IMG/VR virus record: IMGVR_UViG_2681813146_000008
Coordinates: 1-46,757 of that record
From: a virus
Lineage: Duplodnaviria > Heunggongvirae > Uroviricota > Caudoviricetes
Strand: one strand, 5' to 3'
Length of the DNA stretch: 46,757 bases
Below the pieces are notes generated by a model. It ran no database searches. It had not been told where the DNA came from and saw nothing but the letters and a program-made list of their open reading frames with translations. Positions 697 through 45,104 of the stretch are shown here, piece by piece. Within the stretch, counting starts at the first letter, position 1; every line of letters begins with the position of its first letter. The translations under genes and the position numbers were made by a program.

Positions 697-1059
697 GGGG
701 CTGATTCTGGATTCGACGGGATTTGCGAAACCCAAGGTGCATGCCGAGGGGCGGTTGGCCTCGTAAAAAGCCGCAAAAAATAGTCGCAAACGACGAAAAC
801 TACGCTTTAGCAGCTTAATAACCTGCTTAGAGCCCTCTCTCCCTAGCCTCCGCTCTTAGGACGGGGATCAAGAGAGGTCAAACCCAAAAGAGATCGCGTG
901 GAAGCCCTGCCTGGGGTTGAAGCGTTAAAACTTAATCAGGCTAGTTTGTTAGTGGCGTGTCCGTCCGCAGCTGGCAAGCGAATGTAAAGACTGACTAAGC
1001 ATGTAGTACCGAGGATGTAGGAATTTCGGACGCGGGTTCAACTCCCGCCAGCTCCACCA
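697..1059 (+). ncRNA. ssrA: tmRNA (SsrA), 363 nt
   Basis: Starts GGGGCTGATTCTGGATTCGACGGG, contains the tag reading frame gcaaacgacgaaaactacgctttagcagcttaa (ANDENYALAA-stop, about 786-818) and ends with the tRNA-like acceptor arm GGGTTCAACTCCCGCCAGCTCCACCA. Confidence 0.96.
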
Positions 1060-1062
1060 AAT
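1015..1062 (+). repeat. Prophage att repeat, ssrA-proximal copy (48 bp, covers the ssrA 3' end)
   Basis: atgtaggaatttcggacgcgggttcaactcccgccagctccaccaaat, identical to 33268-33315. Confidence 0.9.
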
Positions 1063-30266: not shown

Positions 30267-30899
30267 ATGATACAGGTAAAGGTTGGAGAGAATACAGGGG
30301 GAAGAGAGGCTATCCATAGACTAATGGCAGCCTATGATTTCAAGTCCAGACAGCAACTTTGCGATCACTTAGGCGCATCAAAAAGCACCATGGCAAACAG
30401 ATACTTAAGAGATAGTTTTCCTGCAGAGTGGGTGATTCAGTGCGCCTTGGAAACAGGAGTTTCTTTACTGTGGCTAACCACCGGACAGGGGGAGCCAGGT
30501 CCAAACATTGAACCTAAAAAAAATATCAATTCCGTGAACTCCAGCAAGGTTGTACCTCTTTCTGAACTAGTATCTCCTGAAATTGACAAGGCGACTCTCA
30601 ACGGTGGTTTATTGGTCGATGCTGGAAAAGCAATCATTGATAGCAGCATACTCCCCTCAGACTCAAGCAACCTACTGCTGGTGACTACTTCTGGTGATTC
30701 TTATTTAATAGATCGCAACCAAACACCACCAGTAAATGGTATGTGGTTAGTCGATATCGACGGGATAAAAAGCATCGTTAAATTGACCCGACTCCCGGGA
30801 AACAAATTAGTAGTGCATCAGGATGATTCATCGTTTGAGTGCGGTCTGGATGACATTGAGGTAGTAGGCCGCGCACTGAAAATCATTAAGAGCCTTTGA
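30267..30899 (+). CDS. cI: CI immunity repressor (186 CI-like)
   Basis: 210 aa with N-terminal HTH; followed directly by int (lysogenic operon). Confidence 0.8.
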   Translation: MIQVKVGENTGGREAIHRLMAAYDFKSRQQLCDHLGASKSTMANRYLRDSFPAEWVIQCALETGVSLLWLTTGQGEPGPNIEPKKNINSVNSSKVVPLSELVSPEIDKATLNGGLLVDAGKAIIDSSILPSDSSNLLLVTTSGDSYLIDRNQTPPVNGMWLVDIDGIKSIVKLTRLPGNKLVVHQDDSSFECGLDDIEVVGRALKIIKSL

Positions 30900-30900
30900 T

Positions 30901-31920
30901 ATGACCATCAGAAAACAGCCGAACGGAAAATGGTTGTGTGAGTGCTATCCCAATGGACGCAATGGCAAGCGCGTGCGTAAGCAATTTGCCACGAAAGGCG
31001 AAGCCATTGCGTTTGAAAGCTTCACAATGGAAGAAGTGAATAAAAAACCGTGGTTGGGTGAAAAGGATGATCGGCGACGCCTATCAGAATTAATTGAGCT
31101 TTGGTATTCCCTGTATGGTCAGACACTCGCAGACCCCAAGCGCCTCATGGCGAAACTTAGAATTATCTGTAATGGTCTAGGCGACCCCATCGCCTCTGAG
31201 CTGACAGCAGGTGATTTCACAAAATATCGGGAAGCCAGATTAAAGGGGGAGGTCCAAAATGAAGACGGTTCGTTCATGTCACCCGTTAAACCTCGCACAG
31301 TTAATCTTGAGCAGCGTAACCTGTCATCGGTGTTCGGTACATTGAAAAAACTAGGGCACTGGTCCGCACCAAACCCGCTGGCAGGGCTTCCAACCTTCAA
31401 AATTGCTGAAGGTGAATTGGCTTTTCTTTCCACGGACGAAATCAAACGCCTGTTGGCTGCATGTGCTGAATCTCAAAGCCCGAGCCTACTAATGATTACC
31501 AAAATATGCTTAGCTACCGGCGCACGGTGGAGTGAAGCCGAAAAACTGCAGGGCCATCAGTTATCCAAATACCGCATCACTTATACCAAGACGAAGGGCA
31601 AGAAAAACCGTACCGTGCCGATATCTCAGGAGCTGTACAACGAACTTCCTAAAAACCGAGGGAAGTTATTCTCGCCATGCAGAAAAGCCTTTGAGCGTGC
31701 AGTAAAGCGGGCCGGTATTGAGCTTCCAGAGGGTCAATGCACCCATGTATTACGTCATACATTTGCCAGCCATTTTATGATGAACGGAGGAAACATACTT
31801 GTTCTTAAAGAGATTCTCGGTCATACAGATATAAAAATGACAATGGTTTATTCTCATTTTTCCCCAGACCATCTTGAAGATGCCGTTACCAAAAACCCTT
31901 TACATATGTTAACTATTTGA
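30901..31920 (+). CDS. int: Tyrosine integrase (P2/186 type)
   Basis: 339 aa; C-terminal catalytic R...H-x-x-R...Y (HVLRHTFASH, MVYSHF). Confidence 0.92.
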   Translation: MTIRKQPNGKWLCECYPNGRNGKRVRKQFATKGEAIAFESFTMEEVNKKPWLGEKDDRRRLSELIELWYSLYGQTLADPKRLMAKLRIICNGLGDPIASELTAGDFTKYREARLKGEVQNEDGSFMSPVKPRTVNLEQRNLSSVFGTLKKLGHWSAPNPLAGLPTFKIAEGELAFLSTDEIKRLLAACAESQSPSLLMITKICLATGARWSEAEKLQGHQLSKYRITYTKTKGKKNRTVPISQELYNELPKNRGKLFSPCRKAFERAVKRAGIELPEGQCTHVLRHTFASHFMMNGGNILVLKEILGHTDIKMTMVYSHFSPDHLEDAVTKNPLHMLTI

Positions 31921-31930
31921 GCTTACCAAA

Positions 31931-33151
31931 ATGGATATTAAAAACAAAGTCAATAAAGAAAAGTTATTTGAGAACCATTTAAACTCATTATTAAAACAAG
32001 TCATTTCCGAACCAAAATTAAACCCTCCACTTATAGTACATAGAGATATAATAAGTGACTTCACTGAACGTTGCGATAAGTATCTAAAAACAATAATTAA
32101 ATACAAAAGCAACAATAAAGATGGGATGCCGAATTTTGATGAATTAATCAGCAAAGTTAAGAACATTCAAAATGGAATAACATTATCACTTGAAAGTTTT
32201 TTATCAGGTGATATCAAGTCAGCATATGACCACTTTGATAAAACATTCTCTGATAACTCAACAATCCAACACATACATCGCATCACTACTCCACTCAGTA
32301 GCATTTGCAATCATAAAAAACCATTATTTCGAGTTAGAAAAAGTGAAAATCCTCTAACGTCAAGAGATGAAATTTTCCATATTCCATTCTCCAATAGACA
32401 TTTTGTTAGTGCACAAAGATATTCAGTCGCTGGCTTACCATGTTTATATCTTGGCACTTCTGTTTATGTTTGTTGGCAGGAGATGGGAAAACCAGATTTT
32501 GACAAGCTTTTTATTTCATCATTTACTACCAGTGAAACTGAATATAAAGTCTTAAACTTTGCATCACAGCTTTTGTTACATCCCTCACCAAATTACGCCG
32601 ACGAAAATAAACTAGCCGAAACAAATAGAGTAAAGGCCTCTTATCTCATTTTCTGGCCTTTAATTATTGCATGTAATTATTTAAAAAATCATCGTTCTGC
32701 AACATTCATACAAGAGTACATTATCCCTAATTTGTTGATGCAATGGATTAGTAGAAAAACTTACTCGAAAATTGTCGGTGTAGCTTACTTCTCTACAAAA
32801 ATGCCTAATTCACGATTAAGTAACCGCTCAATAAATGTTGTATTTCCACCCAAAGTTACATATGAACAAACGGTAAAACAAAATTTTTGCCCTAAACTCT
32901 CCACATTATTCGACTTTACGCCACCTATTTCGTGGCAGGTCTTAAAAACATTAGATCATTCATCAATAACAGAAAATTCAATAGAATTGATGATGTCAAA
33001 GAGATATCTTCAAAGTCAAGAAAAACTGTCTGGAATTAAAAACTTCGAAGAGGACATTGTAAAACTATACCCCTTAACTGATTTTTACAAACTCGAAAGA
33101 AGTATTGATATGCTATTTGAATATAAAAAGATAGATAACCCCATACTATAA
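31931..33151 (+). CDS. AT-rich hypothetical protein with a RES-like motif (cargo between int and att)
   Basis: 406-aa ORF, strongly AT-rich and Lys/Asn-rich versus neighbouring phage genes; central segment RYSVAGLPCLYLGTSVYVCWQE resembles the RES-domain core; same strand and 10 nt downstream of int. Confidence 0.6.
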   Translation: MDIKNKVNKEKLFENHLNSLLKQVISEPKLNPPLIVHRDIISDFTERCDKYLKTIIKYKSNNKDGMPNFDELISKVKNIQNGITLSLESFLSGDIKSAYDHFDKTFSDNSTIQHIHRITTPLSSICNHKKPLFRVRKSENPLTSRDEIFHIPFSNRHFVSAQRYSVAGLPCLYLGTSVYVCWQEMGKPDFDKLFISSFTTSETEYKVLNFASQLLLHPSPNYADENKLAETNRVKASYLIFWPLIIACNYLKNHRSATFIQEYIIPNLLMQWISRKTYSKIVGVAYFSTKMPNSRLSNRSINVVFPPKVTYEQTVKQNFCPKLSTLFDFTPPISWQVLKTLDHSSITENSIELMMSKRYLQSQEKLSGIKNFEEDIVKLYPLTDFYKLERSIDMLFEYKKIDNPIL

Positions 33152-33267
33152 AACTGGCGACAAATTGGCGGCAGAACTTTAAAATCACATAAAACAGCCA
33201 AACACAAGATAAGACTAATTCACTGATTTAAAACGTAAATATCTATTTTCACTATAATATAAATGGT

Positions 33268-33315
33268 ATGTAGGAATTTCGGACGCGGGTTCAACTCCCG
33301 CCAGCTCCACCAAAT
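33268..33315 (+). repeat. Prophage att repeat, distal copy (48 bp); also the left junction of the P4-like element
   Basis: Perfect copy of 1015-1062. Confidence 0.9.
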
Positions 33316-33348
33316 CATGATCCGGATACGTCCGGTGAAGTACAGAAA

Positions 33349-33380
33349 GCCCGCATGGCACAAGCCCTGCGGGCTTTTTT
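33349..33380 (+). terminator. Hairpin plus T6 downstream of the att repeat
   Basis: gcccgca-N12-tgcgggc followed by tttttt. Confidence 0.45.
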
Positions 33381-33427
33381 GTGTCTGTCGTTGTCCGAGA
33401 ACATCCGGCTAAATCCGGTGATTATTG

Positions 33428-33473
33428 GTATACGTTTAGGTATACGGTAGGATGTATACCTAAAAGCGTATAC
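33428..33473. repeat. Four GTATAC-core repeats upstream of the satellite int (candidate Int/Vis arm-type sites)
   Basis: GGTATACG-type motifs at about 33428, 33440, 33454 and 33468, two in each orientation; two more copies at 45003-45020 near the other att end. Confidence 0.5.
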
Positions 33474-33496
33474 CAATTCATGAAGGAGCGGCCACA

Positions 33497-34684
33497 GTGG
33501 CACGGACAACACGCCCCCTTACCAACACCGAAGTTCTTCGCGCTAAAGCGTTAGAGAAGGATCTAACTCTGCATGATGGCGATGGCCTTTTCCTGATAGT
33601 GAAAACCAGCGGGAAAAAGCTCTGGCGTTTCCGTTATCAACGTCCAGCGACAAAACAGCGGACAATGATGGGGCTTGGTGCTTTCCCCGCCCTTTCACTT
33701 GCTGACGCCCGAGGGTTAAGAGCGGATTACCTTGCCTTGTTAGCCAACGGAATTGACCCACAAATTCAGGCCGAAGTTGCAGAGGAACAGCAGCAAATCG
33801 CTCTGGACAGTATTTTCTCAATGGTCGCCGCTAACTGGTTCCAGCTCAAAAGTAAAAGCGTTACCCCTGATTACGCAAAAGACATTTGGCGCTCATTGGA
33901 GAAAGATGTATTCCCTGCCATCGGTGAGATCCCCGTTCAGCAAATTAAAGCCCGAATATTAGTTGAAGCATTGGAACCAATCAAAGCTCGTGGAGCGCTT
34001 GAGACTGTACGTCGACTAGTGCAGCGTATTAACGAGATAATGATTTATGCCGTAAACACTGGTCTGATTGATGCCAATCCAGCATCAGGTATTGGAATGG
34101 CCTTTGAGAAGCCCAAAAAACAAAACATGCCGACGCTGCGGCCAGAAGAATTGCCGAAGCTGATGCGTTCTTTAGTCATGTCAAATCTGTCTGTTCCGAC
34201 TCGCTGTCTCATTGAATGGCAACTCCTGACGCTCGTGCGCCCTTCTGAGGCCTCTGGTGCCCGTTGGGCAGAGATCGATCTCGATACGAAGCTCTGGACT
34301 ATTCCAGCCGAACGGATGAAAGCTAAGCGGGAACACATTGTTCCTTTATCACCACAGGCATTAGAGATTCTGGATGTAATGAAGCCAATTAGCGCTCACC
34401 GAGAACATGTTTTTCCCAGCAGGAATGATCCTAAACAACCTATGAATAGCCAAACTGCTAATGCTGCTCTTAAAAGGATTGGTTATGGCGGTAAACTCGT
34501 TGCTCATGGGCTTCGTTCTATAGCTAGCACAGCGTTGAACGAGTCTGGTTTTAATTCCGATATTATAGAATCAGCTTTAGCGCATATAGATAAAAATGAA
34601 GTACGGCGGGCGTATAATCGTTCTATTTATTTAGAACAACGCAGAGAATTGATGTCATGGTGGGGTATAAAAGTAAAATCATAG
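33497..34684 (+). CDS. int: Tyrosine integrase, P4/CP4-57 IntA family
   Basis: 395 aa, GTG start with AAGGAG RBS; adjacent to the ssrA 3' end repeat as in CP4-57. Confidence 0.92.
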   Translation: MARTTRPLTNTEVLRAKALEKDLTLHDGDGLFLIVKTSGKKLWRFRYQRPATKQRTMMGLGAFPALSLADARGLRADYLALLANGIDPQIQAEVAEEQQQIALDSIFSMVAANWFQLKSKSVTPDYAKDIWRSLEKDVFPAIGEIPVQQIKARILVEALEPIKARGALETVRRLVQRINEIMIYAVNTGLIDANPASGIGMAFEKPKKQNMPTLRPEELPKLMRSLVMSNLSVPTRCLIEWQLLTLVRPSEASGARWAEIDLDTKLWTIPAERMKAKREHIVPLSPQALEILDVMKPISAHREHVFPSRNDPKQPMNSQTANAALKRIGYGGKLVAHGLRSIASTALNESGFNSDIIESALAHIDKNEVRRAYNRSIYLEQRRELMSWWGIKVKS

Positions 34685-34698
34685 GGCTTTCGCCCTAT
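34681..34698. terminator. Bidirectional hairpin between convergent int and the 913-aa gene
   Basis: atagggc-tttc-gccctat. Confidence 0.4.
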
Positions 34699-34708
34699 GA
34701 TTTAATAA

Positions 34709-37450
34709 TTATAAAGTTTCCAATGCGAAATTTCGATATCTCATTAGTGCATAAATATATCTAGTAGTAGATGCAGGTGTCCATGTTCTCTCAAGTTCTT
34801 TTGCTAGTGCTGCCCCCATCATTTTCTTATCATCATCGCCAAATTTATTTACATAAGCATTTAATATTTTGATAGCTGGAGATTCAGTGACTAACCTAGC
34901 TAAAGCCCTTTCAAGGCTGATGCTTTCTAATATAACTTCTATTTTATTATTTATCACCACACCATCATCTTGTCGAGAACAAAAACCTAAAGAAATTAAA
35001 TCCTGCACTGCATTCCTATGTTTATTCGCCTGAATGAATGAATGGCTCATTTTTTTATTGGCGCACAGATACTCGGCAACTTCGAGTGTTTTTTCTGGCG
35101 AAGTAGCAGCTAAGAAAAGTGATCCTCTTCTATTACGTGCCCCTCTTTTATCTAGATCAATCGCCCCAAATGCTGGGGAAAACAACTCGCCATCATATAT
35201 AACCACAGATTTCCCGATAACCGCTATCAGCCCCGTAAATTGTAACCAAGCCAATAATTTTGAACTATAAGACTTAGGATAACCACCGTCTTTATTCTTA
35301 TAAGTATGGGCTATTATAGATTCATACTTATCGATAGGAACTCTTCTTAAATCGGCATCAACAATATTCTCTGCCAATTCTAACAAAACACTATGACTCT
35401 TAAAATGCTCACGAAGAAACTCAGGGACATTTGTGATAGTCTGTTTACAAACTATATTCCCATTTAAATCTCTGTCTATGAGAACAAAATACTGCAAATC
35501 CATTAAAACATTTATTAATGTTCCCCGACTATATTTTAGTTTAGTTTGCAGTTCATCCAAGCTAATGGTTTTGAACGAGTTTACAACATCAAGAATTAAC
35601 AAAACCATTTTCGGAGATGTTGATGGCATATATGACCATGGTATAACTGGAAGGTCATTTCCTTTCAAGTAATCTCGAAAAACGTCCCAATACACTGATA
35701 ATTTTTCACCTGTTTTAATTACCATCCTATCTGAAATTAGCTCTAAAACAGTATCACTCCCAAACTCTTTAGTAACTTCATATTGACTAATCGGAGAGTT
35801 CTTTGCCACAAATTTTAAACATGAATTTTGTTTTTCAGGCCTATCTAAATCCTCATGAAATAAATTTGAGATCTGTAGTTGACTAACCAACATTTGATCC
35901 TGTGAGATACCTCCTTTTAGTTTTTTGAATACATGAATACAAAGCTTTTTCAATAACCATGGATAACCTTGAGCTTGCTGAATAAGACGCGTGCGTAAAG
36001 GTTTATTTAATTTAAACCCTGTATTTAGCTCGAAACTATTAATTAATTTAGATGAATCTTTTAGATCAAAAGGCTCAAGTTTCTTTTCAACCCTATAATC
36101 TTTTAGCCGATTCCACATTGAGTACGCTGGATTTTCATCCCCTAAAGTAATACCAGTTCTCCATGAGAACCCTACAACTAAATTGCTTTGTAGTGCCGAG
36201 ACATCGAGTGCGAATCGTTCAAATTCTTTAAATAGCCCGAATAGTTCCTCTTTCATAAAGACTTCTTCGAACTGATCAAAGAAAATAGTCAATACCTTAT
36301 CATGTTCGGAAAGGTATTTTAAACATTCCTGAACACTCTCAGATCCTATGATATCCGTAACACTCTCAATCAGGAATGGTTTTTCATATTCGATAAAACC
36401 TTCTTTGATCGCACTGCTGAAAGCTTTAACGACAGCTTCTGCCACAAAACGTCCGCCTCTAGCAGAACGGACATCGACTGGTGTAAGGAAGAATTTATTC
36501 TTCCATTTTTGATTTTTAAATCTTGAGGATAGCCTTGCTATTAAAGATGACTTTCCATTTCCTGAACCGCCTATAAGTGATAGGACTCTACTTTGAGAGC
36601 TATTTCCTCTAACATTCTCAAGATAATCCCAAACTTCTTTCTGTATATATTCGCGACCAACAAAGTCTTTCGGCTGACATGGCTTATAATCCATAAAATC
36701 GTCAGCAAGAATTATTTCACTGACAATTTCCCTTTCGTAATTTTCAGATAATTTTGAAGACGAAACAGTTTGTTCCGGTTCAGATAATATATAAAAATCA
36801 GTTACTTCCAACCCTTCAAAAAGCCCTTGCTCCTTTATAATATCACTTATGCGACTGACACTTGGAATTTTACTATTTTTATTTATAGCGAACGGCACCA
36901 CTCTTATAGGGCTACCATTTTCAACTTCTTGCAAAAGCCAAGTCATTTCTATTTCAGGATGAACTAAAAGTGTTGCACTAGTATATTTTGCCGGAATGTC
37001 ATCTGTTGGAATATCCTCAACCTTACCTGTTGCAAGTATAGATATAAGAATCTCTTTTTTATCAAAAAAAGAATAATCTATACGCTCATCAAGTCTATAA
37101 TCCTCAAGCGTTGACTGAGCATCTTTACCCAAATCAGAAATTGAAAAAAGTGCAATTTTTTTAACTCTCAACCTAAATGCTTGAGAAAATGCCAAATCAA
37201 CCACAGATGAATCAACTTTTTGCTGCATGAATTTACATTCTACATACAGCTTTTCATTTGATGGTGTATGAGTAGCCTGAATATCAATTTCCATGCCAGA
37301 TTTTCTGACTTCCATACCATCAATTCTATACGATTGCCGGCGGAGTATATCAGCGCAAAAATTCTCGAAAAACTTCCCTCTCGAGGTATTGGAATAATTA
37401 CTAGGTACACAAACTATCAAATCTTTATTCAGTGGTAACGGCCTGGCCAT
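34709..37450 (-). CDS. Large hypothetical protein: N-terminal Mrr-like PD-(D/E)xK nuclease motif plus P-loop NTPase; candidate antiviral defence protein
   Basis: 913-aa AT-rich ORF; N-terminus GMEIDIQA...YVECKF (D...E-x-K); Walker A LIGGSGNGKSSL and Walker B-like VLTIFFDQFEE; occupies the position of gop-beta-cII between cos and int. Confidence 0.7.
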   Translation of the reverse strand: MARPLPLNKDLIVCVPSNYSNTSRGKFFENFCADILRRQSYRIDGMEVRKSGMEIDIQATHTPSNEKLYVECKFMQQKVDSSVVDLAFSQAFRLRVKKIALFSISDLGKDAQSTLEDYRLDERIDYSFFDKKEILISILATGKVEDIPTDDIPAKYTSATLLVHPEIEMTWLLQEVENGSPIRVVPFAINKNSKIPSVSRISDIIKEQGLFEGLEVTDFYILSEPEQTVSSSKLSENYEREIVSEIILADDFMDYKPCQPKDFVGREYIQKEVWDYLENVRGNSSQSRVLSLIGGSGNGKSSLIARLSSRFKNQKWKNKFFLTPVDVRSARGGRFVAEAVVKAFSSAIKEGFIEYEKPFLIESVTDIIGSESVQECLKYLSEHDKVLTIFFDQFEEVFMKEELFGLFKEFERFALDVSALQSNLVVGFSWRTGITLGDENPAYSMWNRLKDYRVEKKLEPFDLKDSSKLINSFELNTGFKLNKPLRTRLIQQAQGYPWLLKKLCIHVFKKLKGGISQDQMLVSQLQISNLFHEDLDRPEKQNSCLKFVAKNSPISQYEVTKEFGSDTVLELISDRMVIKTGEKLSVYWDVFRDYLKGNDLPVIPWSYMPSTSPKMVLLILDVVNSFKTISLDELQTKLKYSRGTLINVLMDLQYFVLIDRDLNGNIVCKQTITNVPEFLREHFKSHSVLLELAENIVDADLRRVPIDKYESIIAHTYKNKDGGYPKSYSSKLLAWLQFTGLIAVIGKSVVIYDGELFSPAFGAIDLDKRGARNRRGSLFLAATSPEKTLEVAEYLCANKKMSHSFIQANKHRNAVQDLISLGFCSRQDDGVVINNKIEVILESISLERALARLVTESPAIKILNAYVNKFGDDDKKMMGAALAKELERTWTPASTTRYIYALMRYRNFALETL

Positions 37451-37570
37451 TTATACACTCCTTATCTCATATCCTTTTGACAAGTAAGATATCAACCTCG
37501 AGTTTCAGAAACCAGTATCTTGCGCATATTTACGACATCAAAACTTTTGGTTATGCACCCACAGCGCGCA

Positions 37571-37589
37571 GTGCTTTCCCCGCCTCGCC
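37571..37589 (-). other. cos site of the P4-like satellite (19-nt cohesive-end sequence)
   Basis: Minus strand reads GGCGAGGCGGGGAAAGCAC, an exact match to the P2/P4 cohesive end. Confidence 0.8.
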
Positions 37590-37692
37590 CGCCCGCTTTG
37601 CGGGGCGGTTTTAATACAGTTGCACTGACACGCTCAGACCGCGCCGGGAATGGTGCGGTCTGCAGAAAATGAGGCAGGAAAACGCATGCAAA

Positions 37693-37723
37693 GCCATGCA
37701 CCTTATCGATGCATGGCTTTTTT
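37693..37723. terminator. Hairpin plus T-run between psu and cos
   Basis: gccatgca-N9-tgcatggc followed by tttttt on the plus strand. Confidence 0.4.
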
Positions 37724-37753
37724 CAGTAAAAACGGGAGGATTTTCGGGGAATT

Positions 37754-38326
37754 TTACACAGACTGACGTGATGCCAGTTGCGCACTTTTACGCGAAAAAA
37801 TCATGTTCTGCGCAGGGGTGAATTTTTCACGGCTGTCATCCACCGAAGCCGCGTCAGGCCTGAATCCGATGGTCGTTAAAATGTCACTATCCTGTGCGGA
37901 ATAATTAATTTTTTCCCCCTTCGCAAGCCAGGACAGAAGGGCTTCACGCAGGGCATCTGTGGCACGCTGTATGGCACAGTTTCGGGCAATGGCCGTCAGC
38001 TCACTGTAGCCCATCAGCTCCGGTGCCAGTGCCGCCGCCAGTGCTGTGCCGTGCTGCTGCATAAAATCATTCAGCCGGTCGCGGATGCTGATGTGCTGAA
38101 CGGCTTCATGCGAACGAATATAACGACCGGCGGCCTGATTCACCTGCCATTTTCTGACTTCGATAATATTGCGTAATTCGTCCAGGCGACTGACGTTTCT
38201 GCCTTCTCCTGACTGAAGCCGCAGATATTCCTGTTCGGCCGCAGCCAGCTCATTTTTGCGTTGCAGCCATGCTGCTTTGTTATTCTGACAGGTGTCAAAG
38301 GCCTGCTGTAAGGCTGTGCTTTCCAT
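37754..38326 (-). CDS. psu: Polarity suppression protein Psu (Rho antagonist, capsid decoration)
   Basis: 190 aa, sequence recognised as P4 Psu (MESTALQQAFDTCQNNKAAWLQRK...). Confidence 0.9.
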   Translation of the reverse strand: MESTALQQAFDTCQNNKAAWLQRKNELAAAEQEYLRLQSGEGRNVSRLDELRNIIEVRKWQVNQAAGRYIRSHEAVQHISIRDRLNDFMQQHGTALAAALAPELMGYSELTAIARNCAIQRATDALREALLSWLAKGEKINYSAQDSDILTTIGFRPDAASVDDSREKFTPAQNMIFSRKSAQLASRQSV

Positions 38327-38399
38327 CGTTATCTCTTTCTCATCATGCTGAAGAATAAAAATACGGTGTGCGGCGACGGCCGGTGTTAACCGGCAGCCC

Positions 38400-38900
38400 T
38401 CATTCCAGACGCAGCGAATATGATTGTGTTTTTAACCGTACTGGCGGCAGTTCCTGTTTTTCATGCAGGCTTTCTGCAAGCTCGTCCGGCGTGACCGGGC
38501 GGACAATGAAGCGGTTGATGGTCTGAAGCGTTTTAAACACCAGACCACAGCCCGGATCCGTGCACACATAAAAACGCTCGGTGACTTCCTGAGACAGACG
38601 CCGCGATGTTCTTGACAGCGCAAGGCCTTTACATCTCCGACAACAATATCCGGTAACAAGCATTCTTTTCGGGCGCTTCATGCTGCCGGAGGCTGACGTC
38701 AGTGAATCGCGGTATCTCTGTTTGCCTGAAATGTATTCCATTCCTGAATCTTTACAGTCAGAGAAAAAGCTTTCACTCGCTTCAAATGTCGCAGAGCAAT
38801 AAATATTCCGGCACTGTGCAATCATTATCTTGGTGCCATCGTCCATGAAATGTGCGCAACGGGTGTGAGCAACATGTCCACACGACGGGCAGTAAATCAT
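38400..38900 (-). CDS. delta: Delta late-gene transactivator (tandem Ogr-like zinc fingers)
   Basis: 166 aa with two Ogr-type zinc-finger units (CPSCGHVAHTR... and ...CCRRCKG...CTDPGCG). Confidence 0.9.
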   Translation of the reverse strand: MIYCPSCGHVAHTRCAHFMDDGTKIMIAQCRNIYCSATFEASESFFSDCKDSGMEYISGKQRYRDSLTSASGSMKRPKRMLVTGYCCRRCKGLALSRTSRRLSQEVTERFYVCTDPGCGLVFKTLQTINRFIVRPVTPDELAESLHEKQELPPVRLKTQSYSLRLE

Positions 38901-39631
38901 GACAGCAGTCCTCTGGCCTTAAGCTCTGCTCCCTGCTGGTCTATTTTGTCCTGCCACACCTTGCGCTGTGCCGGTGTGCCTGCCACCTCATAATCCATGT
39001 GCGGGAGTGTTGCCGCTGACAGTCCGGTCAGCCGGAGAACCGGCTCGCCGGTGAGGCTGATTTGCATCTGTTTTATTTTCTGTTCCAGCGATGATTTCAC
39101 CTGCTGCATGACAGCCTTATCGGGTGCGACGTAGCCCTGATGCCCGGTGGTGTTGGCGAGCGGATTTTCCTGTACCAGAATGCTCAGATGCATTGCCCGG
39201 ACAAGCGCCTCACAGGTTTCATTCAGGGCGTGTTCCAGCTCATGCTCTGCATACAGACTCAGAAGGTGATGATGTGCCTTCCGGTAGGCGGTGGCCGTGC
39301 TGTCACACGCCCCTTTCAGGCGTTCGCGTTCAAAATTCAGCACCACGGCCAGATTGTCATATTCCTGTACCAGCTCCCGGCGTGCCACGCGCTCAATGTG
39401 GCGCTGTTTCAGCTCGTCGCTCAGGACACCACCGGCTGCACGAAAGGCCGTGCGCCAGTCGTCAGCGTCGTTTCCGTCGGCCTGCGCCAGCGCATTTTTT
39501 TCCTGCTCTGCCCGTTCAATGGCCGTGACGGTCTCATCCATCAGTCGGGCGTTCTCAAGGTGGGCGGCTCTGGCCTTTTCCAGTTGTGCCAGTGCGGGTT
39601 GCAGATATTCAGGGATGGTGTTGTCAGACAT
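38897..39631 (-). CDS. sid: Sid capsid size determination (external scaffold) protein
   Basis: Start set at MSDNTIPEYL (AGGAG RBS), 244 aa as in P4 Sid; the track ORF extends to 39697. Confidence 0.85.
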   Translation of the reverse strand: MSDNTIPEYLQPALAQLEKARAAHLENARLMDETVTAIERAEQEKNALAQADGNDADDWRTAFRAAGGVLSDELKQRHIERVARRELVQEYDNLAVVLNFERERLKGACDSTATAYRKAHHHLLSLYAEHELEHALNETCEALVRAMHLSILVQENPLANTTGHQGYVAPDKAVMQQVKSSLEQKIKQMQISLTGEPVLRLTGLSAATLPHMDYEVAGTPAQRKVWQDKIDQQGAELKARGLLS

Positions 39632-39665
39632 TTTCCGGCTCCTCGTCACTTCAGGTTGAGAAAAT

Positions 39666-39721
39666 TGTGACGTACACCGGACAACAACACGACGCATTGC
39701 AGATGTGCCAGCCCTGACACA
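39666..39721. promoter_or_regulatory. Psid late promoter with two Delta/Ogr dyads (TGT-N12-ACA)
   Basis: TGTGACGTACACCGGACA (39666-39683) and TGTGCCAGCCCTGACACA (39704-39721), centres about 38 bp apart, 35-90 nt upstream of the sid start. Confidence 0.6.
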
Positions 39722-39801
39722 GGAGACTCATCCTCACACCGGCAAGCCAGGAAAAGGTCGCTGGAAAAAACGGCTTACTGTTTATTTTTTTTATATTTTA
39801 C

Positions 39802-39905
39802 TGTTCACCTCTGTTCACCATAAGAAAAAAGATAAGTAATACAGTAAGTTAAAGGGTGAACAATCGCAGTAATGACTGTTCACCGTCTGTTCACCACTGT
39901 TCACC
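39802..39905. repeat. Iteron cluster (six TGTTCACC octamers), candidate satellite ori
   Basis: Octamers at about 39802, 39812, 39877, 39888, 39898 (direct) and 39855 (inverted), mostly at 10-11 bp spacing. Confidence 0.7.
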
Positions 39906-40064
39906 CGTTGATGGGCTTTTTGTGCTGTTTATTACTGTTTGTTTTTATTAATTCGCCGGGAATGAATAAGAAAAAACGATTTGTATTTCACTATAAAAAT
40001 TACGAATTGCTTTAAGTGGCTTTAAATGACTTTAAGTGGAGATGAACAAAAAATACACAAGCAT

Positions 40065-40082
40065 TGTAAGGCTGCCGGAACA
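40065..40082. promoter_or_regulatory. Delta/Ogr-type dyad upstream of the alpha operon (PLL-like late promoter)
   Basis: TGTAAGGCTGCCGGAACA about 110 nt upstream of the first + strand gene. Confidence 0.4.
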
Positions 40083-40184
40083 AATCCCCCCTGTTGCGTC
40101 TGCTGAAAATATTCACAAAATAAAGCGCTACCCGAAGCCGGACGGACTTATCCGGTGCTGTATGGACATTAACGAGGTAGCCCG

Positions 40185-40451
40185 ATGCAAGCTGTTTTTT
40201 CTTCCCCGTCTCCCGCCCCTGTGACGCCACTGATGCCGCTGCCGGACATCACACAGGAGCGTTTTTTACGTCTTCCGGAAGTGATGCACCTGTGCGGCCT
40301 GTCACGCTCGACCATCTATGAACTCATCCGTAAGGGGGAATTTCCGCCGCAGGTGAGTCTTGGCGGTAAAAATGTGGCCTGGCTGCACTCTGAAGTCACC
40401 GCATGGATGGCCGGGCGCATTGCCGGACGCAAACGGGGGTACGACGCATGA
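40185..40451 (+). CDS. AlpA/Vis-family small HTH regulator
   Basis: 88-aa ORF with GAGG RBS; RLPEV...[11 protein letters not shown]...V.W pattern typical of AlpA-family regulators. Confidence 0.7.
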
Positions 40452-41047
40452 TGATGCCCGCTCTGCAAAAACTCCCTTTTTCTGGCTTGCCTTTTTCCGG
40501 CATTTGCGGATATAGTTTTTCCGCTGCCGCAAAATCGGCAGCCGGGCGTGAGAACCCGAGCAATTCACAGGCGACATATGACGCGCCACGCGTCTTTTTT
40601 TGTGTCGCAATCAATGCCACAGAGCGCCAGATTATGGTGTGGTGTGTGGTCAGTCGTGCAGATGGCATTCCGTGCATCCTGCCCGCGTCCGCTCATTATG
40701 CCGCAGAGTCAATGGTAGCTCAGGCGGGGCAGCCTCCGGGCTGGCCGGTATCCTGTGAAGCCGGTATTCTCACCCCCGTCTGGGCTATCGCCATCGAGCG
40801 TGAGAACTCCGGCGATAGCGTTATTTGCTATTCACAGGAGGCTGCCATCATGGCTACAACCCTTACCCCCTCACACCCTGAATTTGTCTTTGTGTTTGCG
40901 GCTGTCCGTCGCGCAGACCGTCATCCCCGTATCTGTATGCTTCGCACCGTCGCCGGTGATGAACGCAGCGCCCGCCGTTCCCTTGTCCGTGACTATGTGC
41001 TCTCCCTTGCTGCCCGTCTGCCGGTGATGGGGGTGTCCCGTGCGTAA
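40448..41047 (+). CDS. Hypothetical protein (199 aa)
   Basis: ATG overlapping the upstream stop; length matches a P4 alpha-operon ORF; no recognisable motif. Confidence 0.45.
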
Positions 41048-41327
41048 TAAAAAAGCCCCTCAGACCGTCTCAGCGCGTCATGACGCCCGTGAACACCTCA
41101 GCATTGAGGCTTACCATAAGCTCAACCGCGCCAGCGCCGTATCCCAGTTTGTTGGGGGTGATTTGATTCACCGTGAACTCTCCGGCCTGCATCAGCTCTA
41201 CATTCCGCATATTTTCAGCTACCTGAATGAAGATATTGATTTTGTGCTGAATGAGCTGAAAGCCAAAGGCCTGTGCCGCGATTTTCTCGCCCAGCAGAAA
41301 GACCGGGGAGACAGGACGCATGTTTGA
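41040..41327 (+). CDS. Hypothetical protein (95 aa; position of P4 epsilon)
   Basis: 95-aa ORF in the operon leading to alpha; the epsilon assignment is positional only. Confidence 0.5.
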
Positions 41328-41775
41328 TTTTCCCCAGCCCGGTGAGATTTACCGTTCTGCCGGTTTTCCCGATGTGGCCGTGGTCGGCATTCTGGAAGAC
41401 GGTATTCCGTGGGAAATGCCGTACCGCTGCCCGGACATTGTCTGGAATCCGTACCGCCGTAAATTCAGTATCCTTGTGCGTATCCTCGCTGACGGGCGCA
41501 CCACAGACATCCCGCTGGGGCGTTTTCTGCGGGAATTTACCTGTGACCGTCCTGACCTGTTCAAACGCAGCCCCGTAAACCGGCATGCGGTACTGAAAGA
41601 AATGGCCGGAGACCCGGAATTACAGAAATGGCGGGAGAAATATCTGGATATTTACCCGCAGGACCCTGTTCCGGTCAGCCGGGCGGCACCGGTGGCGCGG
41701 GAATGGCGGGAAATTCCCCGCACGGAGCCTGACCCGGAAACCACCCCGGATAACAGTTACCGCAATTATCTGTAA
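41320..41775 (+). CDS. Hypothetical protein (151 aa)
   Basis: Overlapping start with the previous ORF; same length as the P4 ORF preceding alpha. Confidence 0.55.
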   Translation: MFDFPQPGEIYRSAGFPDVAVVGILEDGIPWEMPYRCPDIVWNPYRRKFSILVRILADGRTTDIPLGRFLREFTCDRPDLFKRSPVNRHAVLKEMAGDPELQKWREKYLDIYPQDPVPVSRAAPVAREWREIPRTEPDPETTPDNSYRNYL

Positions 41776-41910
41776 TTAAAAAACGACACCCGAAAAATTA
41801 AATGTGCGTATTCGCGCAGGGATACGCACGTCTTCAGGAGACGCAGATATGCCTTATCAGTTAATGCAACCGGCACGGAATGCAGTCATCTGTCACAGGG
41901 AGGAAAGCAA

Positions 41911-42231
41911 ATGAAAACACCCTTACCGCCCGTCTTACGCGCAGCCCTTTACCGTCGCGCTGTCGCCTGTGCCTGGCTGACCGTGTGCGAACGTCAGCAC
42001 CGCTACCCGCATCTCACCCTTGAGTCACTGGAGGCGGCCATCGCCGCTGAGCTGGAGGGCTTTTATCTGCGCCAGCACGGTGAGGAAAAAGGGCGTCAGA
42101 TAGCCTGTGCCCTGCTGGAAGATTTAATGGAATCCGGCCCCCTGAAGGCCGCGCCGTCGCTGTCCTTTCTCGGGCTGGTTGTGATGGATGAACTCTGTGC
42201 CCGTCACATAAAAGCGCCGGTACTGCACTGA
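41911..42231 (+). CDS. Hypothetical protein (106 aa)
   Basis: ORF immediately upstream of alpha. Confidence 0.55.
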
Positions 42232-42245
42232 AGGAGAACAACACC

Positions 42246-44579
42246 ATGAAAATGAACGTAACCGCCACCGTCAGCCATGCGCTCGGCCACTGGCCGCGTA
42301 TTCTCCCGGCGCTGGGGATTCAGGTGCTGAAGAACCGTCATCAGCCCTGTCCGGTCTGTGGCGGGAGTGACCGCTTCCGTTTTGATGACAGGGAGGGGCG
42401 CGGCACCTGGTACTGCAATCAGTGTGGTGCCGGTGACGGCCTGAAACTGGTTGAAAAGGTGTTTGGTGTTTCCCCGTCCGACGCGGCCGCAAAGGTGGCT
42501 GCCGTGACCGGCAGCCTGCCACCGGCTGACCCGGCAGTGACGACCGCCGCCGTTGCTGAAACAGACGCTGCCCGGAAGAACGCCGCCGCACTGGCACAAA
42601 CCCTGATGGCGAAAACCTGTCCCGGAACCGGTAACGCCTACCTGACCCGCAAGGGCTTTCCCGGCCGGGAATGCCGGATGCTGACCGGCACACACAGAGC
42701 CGGTGGCGTGAGCTGGCGCGCCGGTGACCTTGTGGTGCCACTGTATGACGACAGCGGCGAACTGGTTAACCTTCAGTTAATCAGTGCTGACGGCCGTAAG
42801 CGCACCCTGAAAGGCGGACAGGTCAGGGGCACCTGTCACACCCTTGAAGGACAGAATCAGGCAGGAAAACGTCTGTGGATAGCGGAGGGATACGCGACCG
42901 CACTTACCGTGCATCACCTGACCGGTGAAACGGTGATGGTGGCGCTTTCTTCCGTGAACCTCCTTTCTCTGGCCAGCCTTGCCCGACAGAAGTATCCGGC
43001 CTGTCAGATTGTCCTTGCCGCAGACCGTGACCTCAGCGGTGACGGCCAGACAAAAGCCGCCGCAGCCGCAGATGCGTGTGAGGGCGTTGTTGCCCTGCCG
43101 CCGGTCTTCGGTGACTGGAATGATGCCTTCACGCAGTACGGCGGGGAGGCCACCCGTAAGGCCATTTACGATGCCATCCGGCCACCGGCTGAAAGCCCGT
43201 TCGACACCATGAGCGAAGCGGAGTTTTCCGCCATGAGTACCAGCGAAAAGGCCATGCGTATCTATGAGCATTACGGCGAGGCGCTCGCGGTCGATGCCAA
43301 CGGCCAGCTTCTGTCCCGTTATGAAAATGGTGTCTGGAAGGTGCTGCCACCACAGGACTTTGCCCGGGATGTGGCCGGGCTGTTTCAGCGGCTGCGCGCG
43401 CCGTTCTCCTCCGGGAAGGTGGCCTCCGTGGTGGACACCCTGAAGCTGATTATTCCGCAACAGGAAGCCCCCTCCCGCCGCCTGATTGGCTTTCGTAACG
43501 GCGTGCTCGACACGCAGAACGGCACGTTCCACCCGCACAGTCCGTCACACTGGATGCGCACCCTGTGCGATGTGGATTTCACCCCGCCGGTGGAAGGTGA
43601 AACGCTGGAAACCCACGCTCCCGCGTTCTGGCGCTGGCTTGACCGTGCCGCCGGTGGCCGTGCGGAAAAACGCGACGTGATTCTGGCCGCACTGTTTATG
43701 GTGCTGGCAAACCGCTACGACTGGCAGCTCTTTCTGGAGGTGACCGGTCCCGGCGGCAGCGGCAAAAGTATCATGGCCGAAATAGCCACCCTGCTGGCTG
43801 GTGAGGATAACGCCACGTCGGCCACCATCGAGACGCTGGAATCCCCGCGTGAACGTGCCGCGTTAACTGGCTTCTCACTGATACGCCTGCCGGACCAGGA
43901 AAAATGGAGCGGCGACGGAGCCGGACTCAAGGCCATCACCGGCGGCGATGCGGTGTCCGTTGACCCGAAATACCGGGATGCGTACTCCACGCACATCCCG
44001 GCGGTAATTCTGGCCGTGAACAATAACCCGATGCGCTTCACCGACCGCAGCGGCGGCGTGTCACGCCGGCGGGTGATTATTCACTTCCCGGAACAGATAG
44101 CCCCGCAGGAGCGCGACCCGCAGCTTAAGGACAAAATCACCCGCGAGCTGGCGGTCATCGTGCGTCACCTGATGCAGAAGTTCAGCGACCCGATGCTCGC
44201 CCGGTCACTGCTTCAGTCCCAGCAGAACTCAGACGAGGCACTGAACATCAAACGGGATGCCGACCCGACGTTTGATTTTATCGGCTATCTGGAAACCCTG
44301 CCGCAGACCAGCGGCATGTATATGGGGAACGCCAGTATCATCCCGCGTAATTACCGTAAATACCTCTATCACGCCTATCTGGCCTACATGGAGGCAAACG
44401 GCTACCGGAATGTACTCAGTCTGAAAATGTTCGGGCTGGGGCTGCCGGTGATGCTGAAGGAATACGGACTGAATTACGAGAAGCGCCATACCAAACAGGG
44501 GATACAGACCAACCTGACGCTGAAAGAGGAAAGCTACGGCGACTGGCTGCCAAAATGTGACGACCCTGCAACAACCTGA
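42246..44579 (+). CDS. alpha: Alpha primase-helicase replication protein
   Basis: 777 aa; N-terminal zinc-binding primase motif CPVCGGSDRFRFDD...YCNQCG; Walker A GPGGSGKS in the helicase region. Confidence 0.92.
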   Translation: MKMNVTATVSHALGHWPRILPALGIQVLKNRHQPCPVCGGSDRFRFDDREGRGTWYCNQCGAGDGLKLVEKVFGVSPSDAAAKVAAVTGSLPPADPAVTTAAVAETDAARKNAAALAQTLMAKTCPGTGNAYLTRKGFPGRECRMLTGTHRAGGVSWRAGDLVVPLYDDSGELVNLQLISADGRKRTLKGGQVRGTCHTLEGQNQAGKRLWIAEGYATALTVHHLTGETVMVALSSVNLLSLASLARQKYPACQIVLAADRDLSGDGQTKAAAAADACEGVVALPPVFGDWNDAFTQYGGEATRKAIYDAIRPPAESPFDTMSEAEFSAMSTSEKAMRIYEHYGEALAVDANGQLLSRYENGVWKVLPPQDFARDVAGLFQRLRAPFSSGKVASVVDTLKLIIPQQEAPSRRLIGFRNGVLDTQNGTFHPHSPSHWMRTLCDVDFTPPVEGETLETHAPAFWRWLDRAAGGRAEKRDVILAALFMVLANRYDWQLFLEVTGPGGSGKSIMAEIATLLAGEDNATSATIETLESPRERAALTGFSLIRLPDQEKWSGDGAGLKAITGGDAVSVDPKYRDAYSTHIPAVILAVNNNPMRFTDRSGGVSRRRVIIHFPEQIAPQERDPQLKDKITRELAVIVRHLMQKFSDPMLARSLLQSQQNSDEALNIKRDADPTFDFIGYLETLPQTSGMYMGNASIIPRNYRKYLYHAYLAYMEANGYRNVLSLKMFGLGLPVMLKEYGLNYEKRHTKQGIQTNLTLKEESYGDWLPKCDDPATT

Positions 44580-44595
44580 CCATCATGACTCATCT

Positions 44596-44619
44596 GACCG
44601 GCATCTGCCGGTCTTTTTT
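44596..44619 (+). terminator. Intrinsic terminator after alpha
   Basis: Perfect hairpin gaccggca-tc-tgccggtc followed by tttttt. Confidence 0.7.
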
Positions 44620-44633
44620 CATCCCTGAATCCC

Positions 44634-44938
44634 CCGAAGGTGAACAATCCAGTGTTCACCCTTCACCGTATGTTCACCCGTTATCACACTGAAATTAAAA
44701 GAGAAAAACGAAAGGTGAACAGTGTGAACAATCAAATCAAAAAAAACTTTTTTTCTTCCTGTGTGATTTTCAGTGCGGAGGATTAATCGCCGGTATGAGT
44801 CACACCGGCAGAATGCCGGAGGTGAAGAATCGAATGTTCACCCTTCACCCATTATTTACCACCTATCCAACTGAAATAAAAGGAAAAAACAGAAAGGTGA
44901 ACAGTGTGAACAGTTCTTCCGAAAAAAAATTTTTTTCC
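44634..44938. repeat. crr-like region: two ~120-bp imperfect direct repeats, each with TGTTCACC/GGTGAACA octamers
   Basis: Unit A about 44634-44757 and unit B about 44816-44938; octamers at about 44639, 44653, 44671, 44714 and 44835, 44896 plus degenerate copies; each unit ends in an A-run/T-run. Confidence 0.7.
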
Positions 44939-45082
44939 TGTACGATATAGCATCAATCCAAGTAAAAATGCGCTTTCATTTCACATTAACTTACAGCCAT
45001 TGGTATACGATTAGGTATACGCACAAAAACTGAATTAAACAAAATCATTAAAAATCAAAGCAATACAATATTTATTCAAACT

Positions 45083-45104
45083 CCGCCAGCTCCACCAATC
45101 ATGA
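45083..45104 (+). repeat. Degenerate att repeat at the right end of the satellite
   Basis: ccgccagctccaccaa-tcatga matches the ssrA 3' end with two single-base deletions. Confidence 0.6.

Follow-up and report, generated by a model that had tools for sequence, protein, structure and literature searches.

The closest described relatives of the protein considered here are the toxin components found in RES-Xre toxin–antitoxin (TA) systems: MbcT of M. tuberculosis, PP_2434 of P. putida, VPA0770 of V. parahaemolyticus, and NatT of P. aeruginosa. MbcT, Xre-RES, and NatT act as NAD+ phosphorylases. RES proteins are members of the ADP-ribosyltransferase (ART) superfamily (PMC9503650). The RES-Xre toxins are 145 to 190 amino acids (aa) long, and in canonical systems the C-terminal helices of MbcA/Xre plug the RES toxin in trans (PMC6436930). 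In MbcT, residues R27, R47, and Y58 are essential and E69 contributes (PMC6436930); an R-Y-N signature of RES has been described by the Aravind group (PMC9503650). Here, we analyse a cargo gene at positions 31931 to 33151 of a stretch of Caudoviricetes DNA, IMG/VR record IMGVR_UViG_2681813146_000008, positions 1 to 46,757. This whole stretch of 46,757 nucleotides (nt) is referred to as the window. The gene lies between the integrase gene (int) and the attachment (att) repeat of a 186-like prophage, and we consider it very probable that its product has a RES/ART fold with an intact catalytic constellation.

By its predicted structure, the window protein shares the fold of the RES-Xre toxins. 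By analogy, NAD+ would be its substrate as well, and equivalents of MbcT R27, R47, Y58, and E69 are kept. It differs in size (about 400 aa) and in layout, with an extra N-terminal helical domain of about 125 aa, an insertion of about 60 aa within the core, and a C-terminal extension of about 60 aa. It also differs in setting: the gene has no Xre/MbcA/ParS antitoxin gene and occupies a prophage defence slot, not a TA operon. The window protein thus stands outside canonical RES-Xre membership on two counts, the Pfam threshold and the Xre antitoxin. The RES fold is likewise common to ParT of the ParST system (Sphingobium), an ADP-ribosyltransferase acting on Prs; unlike the window protein as read here from sequence and model, ParT has the ParS antitoxin and a defined protein target.

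True homologs of the window protein are SPbeta YopC (30% identical) and the alleles Cartapus gp33, RE-2010 gp01, and a SopEPhi open reading frame (ORF), which are 45% identical and belong to phrog_7835. In SPbeta, yopC follows the small helix-turn-helix (HTH) gene yopB; the enterobacterial copies have no such gene. The literature searched held no experimental characterisation of YopC or of the Cartapus, RE-2010, and SopEPhi homologs.

Two further groups of systems frame the comparison. Described hotspot cargo (PMC9122126, 2022; for the int-att interval, PMC13586616, 2026) likewise occupies the int-att interval of P2/186-like prophages, where the window gene is exchanged with GapS1, a dCTP deaminase, and an HNH nuclease. 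Unlike other hotspot cargo, the long-form RES family matches no PADLOC model, and the literature searched contained no report of it. The SIR2/DSR and TIR-domain defence effectors would share its proposed logic, an infection-triggered collapse of NAD+ with sensor and effector in one polypeptide; their catalytic folds are unrelated to RES/ART. Two elements of this account are already known: the RES label of relatives, from databases, and the int-att hotspot, from the literature.

The cargo gene

The gene and its immediate surroundings are as follows.

30267..30899, + strand: 186-type CI repressor gene, first gene of the lysogenic operon (Pfam Phage_CI_repr 5e-31, Phage_CI_C 6e-28)
30901..31920, + strand: tyrosine integrase gene, int (Pfam Int_N 1e-29, Phage_integrase 3.5e-24)
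31931..33151, + strand: cargo gene, ATG start, 406 aa; predicted stand-alone long-form RES-domain protein
33152..33267: AT-rich spacer of 116 bp that separates the cargo stop from the att core and is conserved among sibling prophages regardless of cargo
33268..33315, + strand: attR, copy of a 48-bp direct repeat, right end of the prophage

A sequence-only reading of the window had drawn attention to a 406-aa ORF between int and the 48-bp repeat, on the strand of int and 10 nt beyond it, and the ORF is present exactly as described. The int stop codon lies at 31918-31920 and is followed by a 10-nt gap (GCTTACCAAA) before the cargo ATG; a terminator scan found no terminator-like site between the two genes. 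The cargo stop is 116 nt from attR. The same reading called the gene AT-rich, foreign in composition, and rich in Lys and Asn. The first part holds: GC content is 0.317 (GC3 0.27), compared with 0.537 in the rest of the prophage, 0.46 in int, and 0.445 in cI. The second applies just moderately, at 9.4% Lys and 6.9% Asn, with Ser, Leu, and Ile likewise raised.

Sequence conservation indicates that the cargo gene is genuine and under selection. An identical protein is recorded as an E. coli hypothetical protein in a 60-member cluster. Relatives fall into 235 close clusters and, in an exhaustive profile search, into 2,687 clusters with the invariant residues present; they span Enterobacteriaceae prophages, Vibrio integron cassettes, Bacillus SPbeta, Desulfobulbus, and Bacteroidota (more than 2,600 clusters). 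The exact allele has no megablast match in 5,426 complete E. coli genomes; a distant-mode search found diverged alleles (65-68% nucleotide identity) in 32 of these genomes, LF82 included. The whole prophage with its cargo is 99.9% identical in a second E. coli assembly (L004) up to position 33321, where the two diverge.

These data bear on the idea that the gene is a decaying, non-functional remnant, a pseudo-enzyme tolerated at the prophage end. Such a view could call on the missing ribosome-binding site, the extreme AT content, and the lack of a family annotation. Against it, thousands of clusters retain the ORF intact and at full length, residues of catalytic type do not vary over 150 diverse sequences, the AlphaFold2 models are confident, and the second strain preserves the gene together with the whole prophage. 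We reject the remnant reading on the grounds of family-wide conservation and leave it scarcely any probability.

A divergent long-form RES protein

The sequence signal for RES comes through relatives. In PHROGs, the sole match of the window protein is the unannotated phage family phrog_7835 (1e-145). Among 122 diverse relatives, 58 match Pfam RES (PF08808 / COG5654; gathering score 23.2 bits) at E<=0.01, the best at 6.3e-6, and no other Pfam family is matched by more than one of them. One relative (P0195) carries a precomputed PF08808 assignment. SPbeta YopC, a homolog of the window protein at E 1e-41 (30% identity over 280 residues), scores 22.4 bits against PF08808 (E 1.4e-4), just below the cutoff; the Cartapus homolog reaches E 0.23. 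Database labels run the same way, with yopC named 'RES domain-containing protein' in RefSeq and Cartapus gp33 named 'putative RES protein, NAD+ binding domain'.

Predicted structures extend this signal to the window protein itself. The full-length AlphaFold2 model (pLDDT 86.6, pTM 0.88) has one stand-out match in the PDB, MbcT (6fkg; prob 0.99, E 9e-3), and the next match has E 2.2. When only the core is modelled (residues 126-345; pLDDT 90.3), every one of the 7 best PDB matches is a RES toxin: VPA0770 (8gug), P. putida RES (9r35, 6gw6), and ParT (6d0h, 6d0i). The 8gug match has E 4e-4, prob 1.00, and a target TM-score of 0.58. Classical ADP-ribosyltransferases (cholera toxin, LT, PARP13, Tpt1/KptA) come next with non-significant scores, which would be expected of an ART superfamily member. 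A Foldseek search against the viral BFVD library gave nothing significant. Taken as models, these structures place the protein in the RES/ADP-ribosyltransferase-like fold.

The residues that matter in MbcT appear to be kept. In a set of 150 sequences with 25-45% identity to the query, the residues H150, R163, G168, P170, Y173, and E184 are invariant, and R134, R136, S288, and N302 are conserved in at least 90%. For comparison, a profile of the MbcT clade was built from an MbcT sequence that agrees with PDB 6fkg (185 of 186 residues identical). Aligned by hhalign with the family profile, it gave P 0.0019 in a single pre-specified comparison, at a probability of just 14%. In the confident stretch, LPCLYLGTSVYVCWQE pairs with FPAIYLADSAQACMVE, which equates Y173 with Y58 and E184 with E69. 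A greedier, extended alignment of low confidence equates R163 with R47 and R134 with R27. The R-Y-E spacing is 10 and 11 in the window protein and 11 and 11 in MbcT. N302 fits the R-Y-N signature, the equivalences of S288 and N302 being drawn purely from motif resemblance. Judged by these alignments, the catalytic and NAD+-binding residues corresponding to MbcT R27, R47, Y58, and E69 are conserved.

Several results count against this assignment. The window protein has no match to Pfam (RES included) or NCBIfam even at E<=1, nor to any family of PADLOC-DB v2.0.0 at E<=1. Family profiles built as hidden Markov models (HMMs; full length from 24 and 150 sequences, core from 40 sequences) returned coiled-coil and designed-helix noise or nothing from all PDB sequences, and so fall short of the solved RES chains. 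To the low hhalign probability is added the unreliable alignment of the C-terminal half of the core, where S288 and N302 lie. The Foldseek target TM-scores are modest (0.5-0.6) with high root-mean-square deviation; in the models, such scores are consistent with a remote relative carrying a core insertion of about 60 residues.

Our RES/ART call is made because transitive sequence matches, fold, catalytic residues, and curators' labels converge. By its own sequence the protein fails the PF08808 gathering score, and it is a divergent long-form RES subfamily, not a canonical PF08808 member. The sequence-only reading had likened a central segment (RYSVAGLPCLYLGTSVYVCWQE, residues 163-184) to the RES core and had named a PF08808 HMM search and structure prediction as checks. 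The likeness is borne out by fold matches to five solved RES toxins, by the PF08808 matches of 58 of the 122 relatives, and by the conserved MbcT equivalents. Structure prediction agreed, in that the seven best PDB matches of the core model are all solved RES toxins; the HMM search did not, and the RES signal is reached through relatives and fold.

A fold of this kind does not by itself fix the chemistry. An alternative is that the protein is a ParT-like ADP-ribosyltransferase that modifies a specific phage or host protein or nucleic acid in place of depleting NAD+, and that, by this specificity, would need no antitoxin. ParT is among the top fold matches (prob 0.96), RES falls within the ART superfamily (PMC9503650), the lack of a partner makes more sense for a toxin that does no harm before it meets its target, and MbcT has G152 as its region-3 residue, in contrast to the conserved N302 of the long-form family, so that the chemistry may differ. 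The best fold matches, VPA0770 and P. putida RES, are nevertheless toxins of the Xre-RES type; the P. putida toxin degrades NAD+ (Skjerning 2019, as cited in PMC9503650); the residues essential for NAD+ phosphorolysis by MbcT are all conserved; and the context shows no candidate target. We consider this alternative unlikely.

Architecture and autonomy

The protein divides into a RES core and helical surroundings.

31931..32305, + strand: N-terminal all-helical domain (residues 1-125); no family match
32306..32965, + strand: RES/ADP-ribosyltransferase-like core (residues 126-345), with conserved R134, R136, H150, R163, Y173, E184, S288, and N302

In the AlphaFold2 model, the N-terminal helices span residues 3-26, 40-61, 69-91, 95-106, and 109-117. 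The core contains a variable helical insertion at about residues 200-258, and residues 346-406 form a C-terminal helical region. Within Enterobacteriaceae, mean pairwise identity is 0.77 and 0.63 in the core segments and 0.37-0.41 in the N-terminus, insertion, and C-terminus; the N-terminal domain, at 0.37, adjoins the core segment at 0.77. Sequence comparison thus gives the pattern of a constrained enzyme with fast-evolving parts around it, and the N-terminal domain may be a regulatory or sensor part.

No partner gene accompanies the core. Upstream of the cargo are cI and int, and downstream are 116 bp and then att; an Xre/MbcA/ParS-type antitoxin gene is absent. Small ORFs on both strands of the window include no credible partner, those in or after the gene being short and of low complexity, and Rfam has no matches inside the gene; promoter and terminator scans likewise gave no credible sign of one. 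In the sampled contexts of relatives, no neighbour gene is common. The sequence-only reading had already remarked on the missing partner, and both the ORF and Rfam scans of the window and the contexts of relatives agree with it.

The contexts are diverse. In Vibrio harveyi (L005:1-11140 = CP125875.1 972411-983550), the homolog is a lone cassette (5001-6140) of a chromosomal integron, flanked by two of the array's 16 attC-type repeats, each of 142 nt; cassettes nearby code for NUDIX proteins, GNAT acetyltransferases, and unknowns. In Providencia rettgeri (L009:3536-6167), the P4/CP4-57-like island that contains it also has genes for AlpA, YfjT, an Antirestrict protein, DUF932, and a GTPase; 1 kb upstream of the homolog is a canonical RES gene of 160 aa (PF08808, E 1.5e-11). 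No gene is called in the ~1.4 kb upstream of this short RES gene or in the ~1 kb that separates the two. The homolog of a Desulfobulbus genome comes after a 1,018-aa AAA_16-TPR protein, and that of Aeromonas lies in a small islet. In two JGI metagenomes (L010:3496-6152, L011:344-3000), the RES-like gene is third in a tight operon, after DUF4747 (298 aa) and a 194-aa unknown that ends 5 nt before it; neither partner has a PADLOC match, and the operon may be a multi-gene variant. One 611-aa relative (P0150) is an apparent fusion of a long-form RES module (33-325) with a LlaMI/MvaI-BcnI-type restriction endonuclease (388-609; E 2.8e-42). Among sampled relatives, a small upstream HTH gene (yopB, 75 aa) accompanies SPbeta yopC only. 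Because there is no shared neighbour, and because the gene occurs as a lone integron cassette, we conclude that the long-form RES family functions, or at least moves, as a one-gene module.

With no partner conserved, a classical RES-Xre TA reading is rejected. A looser version is that the gene belongs to an addiction or stabilisation module whose antitoxin goes unrecognised; it might be a small RNA or antisense transcript, a very short ORF, or a protein of the prophage such as CI. RES toxins are classically type II TA toxins, the HTH gene yopB precedes yopC in SPbeta, the HTH repressor gene cI is upstream in the same operon, and a promoter-like site is present on the minus strand (33019-32990) inside the 3' end of the cargo. 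These hints meet the lack of a conserved neighbour, the lone Vibrio cassette, antisense ORFs that are short and of low complexity, the empty Rfam scan of the gene, and a slot that is swapped gene-for-gene with non-TA defence genes. The chance of such a module seems to us quite small.

A swappable slot between int and att

Comparison with sibling prophages delimits the cargo as a unit.

31903..33150: variable one-gene slot, the sole segment not shared with sibling E. coli prophages carrying other cargo (blastn breakpoints)

The comparison covers a handful of siblings integrated at ssrA, with a backbone 89-94% identical through cI-int and flanks 77-94% identical. The left breakpoint lies at 31899-31902, 18 nt before the int stop, against siblings carrying GapS1 (L012), a dCTP deaminase (L013), and an HNH nuclease (L014). 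On the right, homology returns at 33151-33155, the cargo stop codon, for L012 and L013, and at 33116, with a low identity of 77%, for L014. GapS1 is named by PGAP; the dCTP deaminase is an anti-phage enzyme on the opposite strand (PADLOC 2e-146); the HNH nuclease has a PADLOC match at 3e-9. All slot cargos have 31-34% GC. In the Salmonella phages RE-2010 and SopEPhi and the Escherichia phage Cartapus, alleles 45% identical to the window protein occupy the same cI-int-X-att position.

The gene is int-att cargo of a P2/186-like prophage; among prophages that are otherwise nearly identical its slot is variable, and known defence genes turn up in it repeatedly. The sequence-only reading had treated the arrangement as exceptional, on the premise that int normally adjoins att; this is inaccurate for the 186-like group, in which phage 186 has Orf69 at that place. 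According to a 2026 survey, the int-att interval of P2-like phages is a minor hotspot for defence that holds 3% of their systems (PMC13586616). The cargo is described here as a single-gene accessory ('moron') module in a swappable slot that closes the lysogenic cI-int operon at its 3' end.

Slot-mates and relatives speak to two other functions. The first is lysogenic conversion unrelated to phages, in which a regulated NAD(P)+-lowering enzyme tunes persistence, virulence, or tolerance of stress, in the manner of NatT in P. aeruginosa. The RES systems that have been characterised have roles in persistence, in stress, and in the stability of plasmids (PMC11535050), and homologs occur in the Salmonella phages SopEPhi and RE-2010 and in the adherent-invasive E. 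coli strain LF82, all pathogen contexts. Yet the slot of the siblings holds bona fide anti-phage genes; relatives include integron cassettes, neighbours of STAND NTPases, members of P4-like islands, and a fusion with a restriction endonuclease; and they span free-living taxa with no pathogen link. We therefore regard a role confined to host physiology as improbable.

The second is counter-defence, with a phage enzyme that destroys NAD-derived immune signals or blunts host immunity. Many NAD/ADPr-processing enzymes aimed at host immunity are carried by phages (PMC9503650), and functional phages (Cartapus, RE-2010) carry the gene. The position of the cargo in the lysogenic operon and not in the early lytic operon, the nature of its slot-mates, which are defence and not anti-defence genes, and the presence of relatives outside phages (integron cassettes, chromosomal islets) all point away from this function, to which we assign a very slight chance.

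Proposed expression in lysogens

A phage 186 precedent suggests how the gene might be expressed. In annotated phage 186, the lysogenic operon (pL, pE) consists of cI, int, and Orf69, with a predicted terminator beyond attP. The cargo takes the position of Orf69, sharing the strand of int and starting 10 nt beyond it; once the phage is integrated, cI-int-cargo has its first downstream terminator-like site at 33362-33385. Three points make co-transcription plausible: the operon map of phage 186, the spacing of 10 nt, and the lack of a terminator between int and the cargo; by this analogy, transcription of the cargo with cI-int in lysogens would be the most economical reading.

Published RNA-seq of an LF82 lysogen gives a partial view of the equivalent operon. 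In LB, Cartapus cI and int reached 33 and 11.6 normalised counts, respectively, against a background of 6.9, and were higher in other conditions (PMC9928086). The Cartapus RES homolog (CARTA_33) lay outside the gene set counted and has no value (PMC9928086).

A proposed model of a self-contained effector

We start from what can be taken as established: the gene and its boundaries, the RES fold, the MbcT-equivalent residues, the lack of a conserved partner, one-gene mobility, and the defence genes in the slot of the siblings. Our preferred reading, to which we give an even chance, is that the cargo encodes a self-contained effector of the RES type that would target NAD+ and be made in lysogens as a defence against phages. 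The sequence of events would run as follows. The cargo would be transcribed in the lysogen as the tail of the pL/pE cI-int transcript, which would end where the displaced ssrA terminator lies. The protein would be kept inactive in cis by the fast-evolving helical regions at its own N- and C-termini, an arrangement proposed because there is no Xre-type antitoxin. A superinfecting phage would lift this inhibition. The RES core would then consume NAD+ (by phosphorolysis to ADP-ribose-1''-phosphate, or by hydrolysis) or ADP-ribosylate a target; infection would be aborted or the incoming phage excluded, and the lysogen population, and hence the prophage, would be protected.

The broader proposal is that the ~400-aa long-form RES family is a previously unrecognised single-protein anti-phage system, in which a fast-evolving helical sensor or lid restrains a RES NAD+ phosphorylase until a phage component frees it. 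We put this forward tentatively and rate its chances as somewhat below even.

Several observations weigh against expression and defence. The literature searched contained no experimental NADase activity, toxicity, or defence for any member of the family. According to a 2024 paper, immunity had not been linked to any RES system, and NatT had no effect on >50 phages (PMC11535050). A moron screen in LF82 did not include the Cartapus homolog, merely because the annotation used lacked CARTA_33 (PMC9928086). The gap GCTTACCAAA shows no obvious Shine-Dalgarno sequence, and at 32% GC the cargo could be a target for H-NS silencing.

The prophage, its attachment sites, and a P4-like satellite

The window comprises a helper prophage and a satellite in tandem at ssrA of an E. 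coli-type chromosome. Its remaining features are as follows.

1-483: smpB, upstream of ssrA
697..1059, + strand: ssrA, transfer-messenger RNA (tmRNA) gene (ARAGORN, tag ANDENYALAA); the prophage uses its 3' end as bacterial attachment site
1015..1062, + strand: attL, copy of the 48-bp direct repeat, left end of the prophage; 100% identical to 33268-33315
33362..33385, + strand: displaced ssrA intrinsic terminator (terminator scan: AAGCCCTGCGGGCTT then a T-run)
33316-45098: complete P4-like satellite, directly after attR and in tandem with the helper-type prophage at ssrA
33497-34684: satellite integrase gene
37754-38326: satellite Psu gene
38400-38900: satellite Delta gene
38897-39697: satellite ORF in the Sid position
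40403-41047: satellite Ash gene; the satellite also carries a DUF5375 gene
42246-44579: satellite alpha primase gene
45075-45098: degenerate third copy of the att core, 21 of 24 bases matching, followed by host csiD

The 48-bp repeat is the 3' end of ssrA, and the prophage is therefore integrated in ssrA. The attR region has a sub-threshold Rfam tmRNA match (33223-33312; 32.5 bits, gathering 47). An Rfam match to the small RNA IsrM on the + strand at 33303-33380 lies far below threshold (39 bits, gathering 376), overlaps the attR end and the ssrA terminator, and probably merely reflects common ssrA-flank sequence. The backbone is of the phage 186 / Fels-2 type of Peduoviridae, with Apl/Cox-like, CII (Phage_CP76), Fil, DUF5347, and DUF2732 genes, and with genes for a DksA-like zinc finger protein, Dam, the GPA replication protein, and a homolog of the P2 gpD tail protein.

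The spacer at 33152-33267 is probably the attP arm, with predicted Int arm, IHF, and Apl sites; it is read in this way because in annotated phage 186 all three kinds of site fall within the equivalent ~120 bp. On the other side of the prophage, an ORF of 160 aa at 1183-1665 (+ strand, 41% GC, no Pfam match) lies between attL and an ogr-like gene; in the circular phage it would be on the opposite side of attP from the RES gene. Its positional counterpart in Cartapus is gp32, a 'putative exonuclease' with weak BRCT and PADLOC PDC-S48 matches. In the LF82 lysogen, gp32 is the most transcribed Cartapus gene, at 15x background (PMC9928086), and the gene in this position may be read through from ssrA. 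The circular Cartapus map thus has accessory genes on either side of attP, the RES-like gp33 and gp32 (L001:5497-5979). Taken as a whole, the att region acts as a cargo site with two sides, and the conserved 116-bp spacer is presumably the recombination arm.

The satellite carries accessory DNA of its own. Between its int and psu, in the published P4 defence hotspot, a gene on the minus strand (34709-37450; 35% GC, 913 aa) encodes a protein that begins with a restriction endonuclease domain of the Mrr type (E 1.4e-7) and also has a STAND NTPase domain, nSTAND1 (E 1.3e-7). Against PADLOC it gives a weak DndF match alone (4e-4), and by its domains it may be an uncatalogued nuclease-STAND defence gene. 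Near the right end of the satellite, just before the degenerate att copy, the segment 44634-44937 contains two 122-nt direct repeats that are 78% identical and 182 nt apart.

Significance

The RES toxins are a very large family, and debate over their physiological role continues. The cargo gene is a candidate, not a demonstrated new system, and the hypothesis is directly and cheaply testable with one cloned gene. Should a defence test be negative, the gene would be an ordinary prophage moron of known enzyme fold. Should defence hold true, RES/ART would be the third NAD+-depleting immune fold after TIR and SIR2, and the RES family would gain its first immune role. The family would show a TA toxin turning into a self-regulated, single-chain sensor-effector. 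It would also give a function to thousands of 'hypothetical' prophage genes, including those of Salmonella phages and of the Crohn's-associated E. coli LF82.

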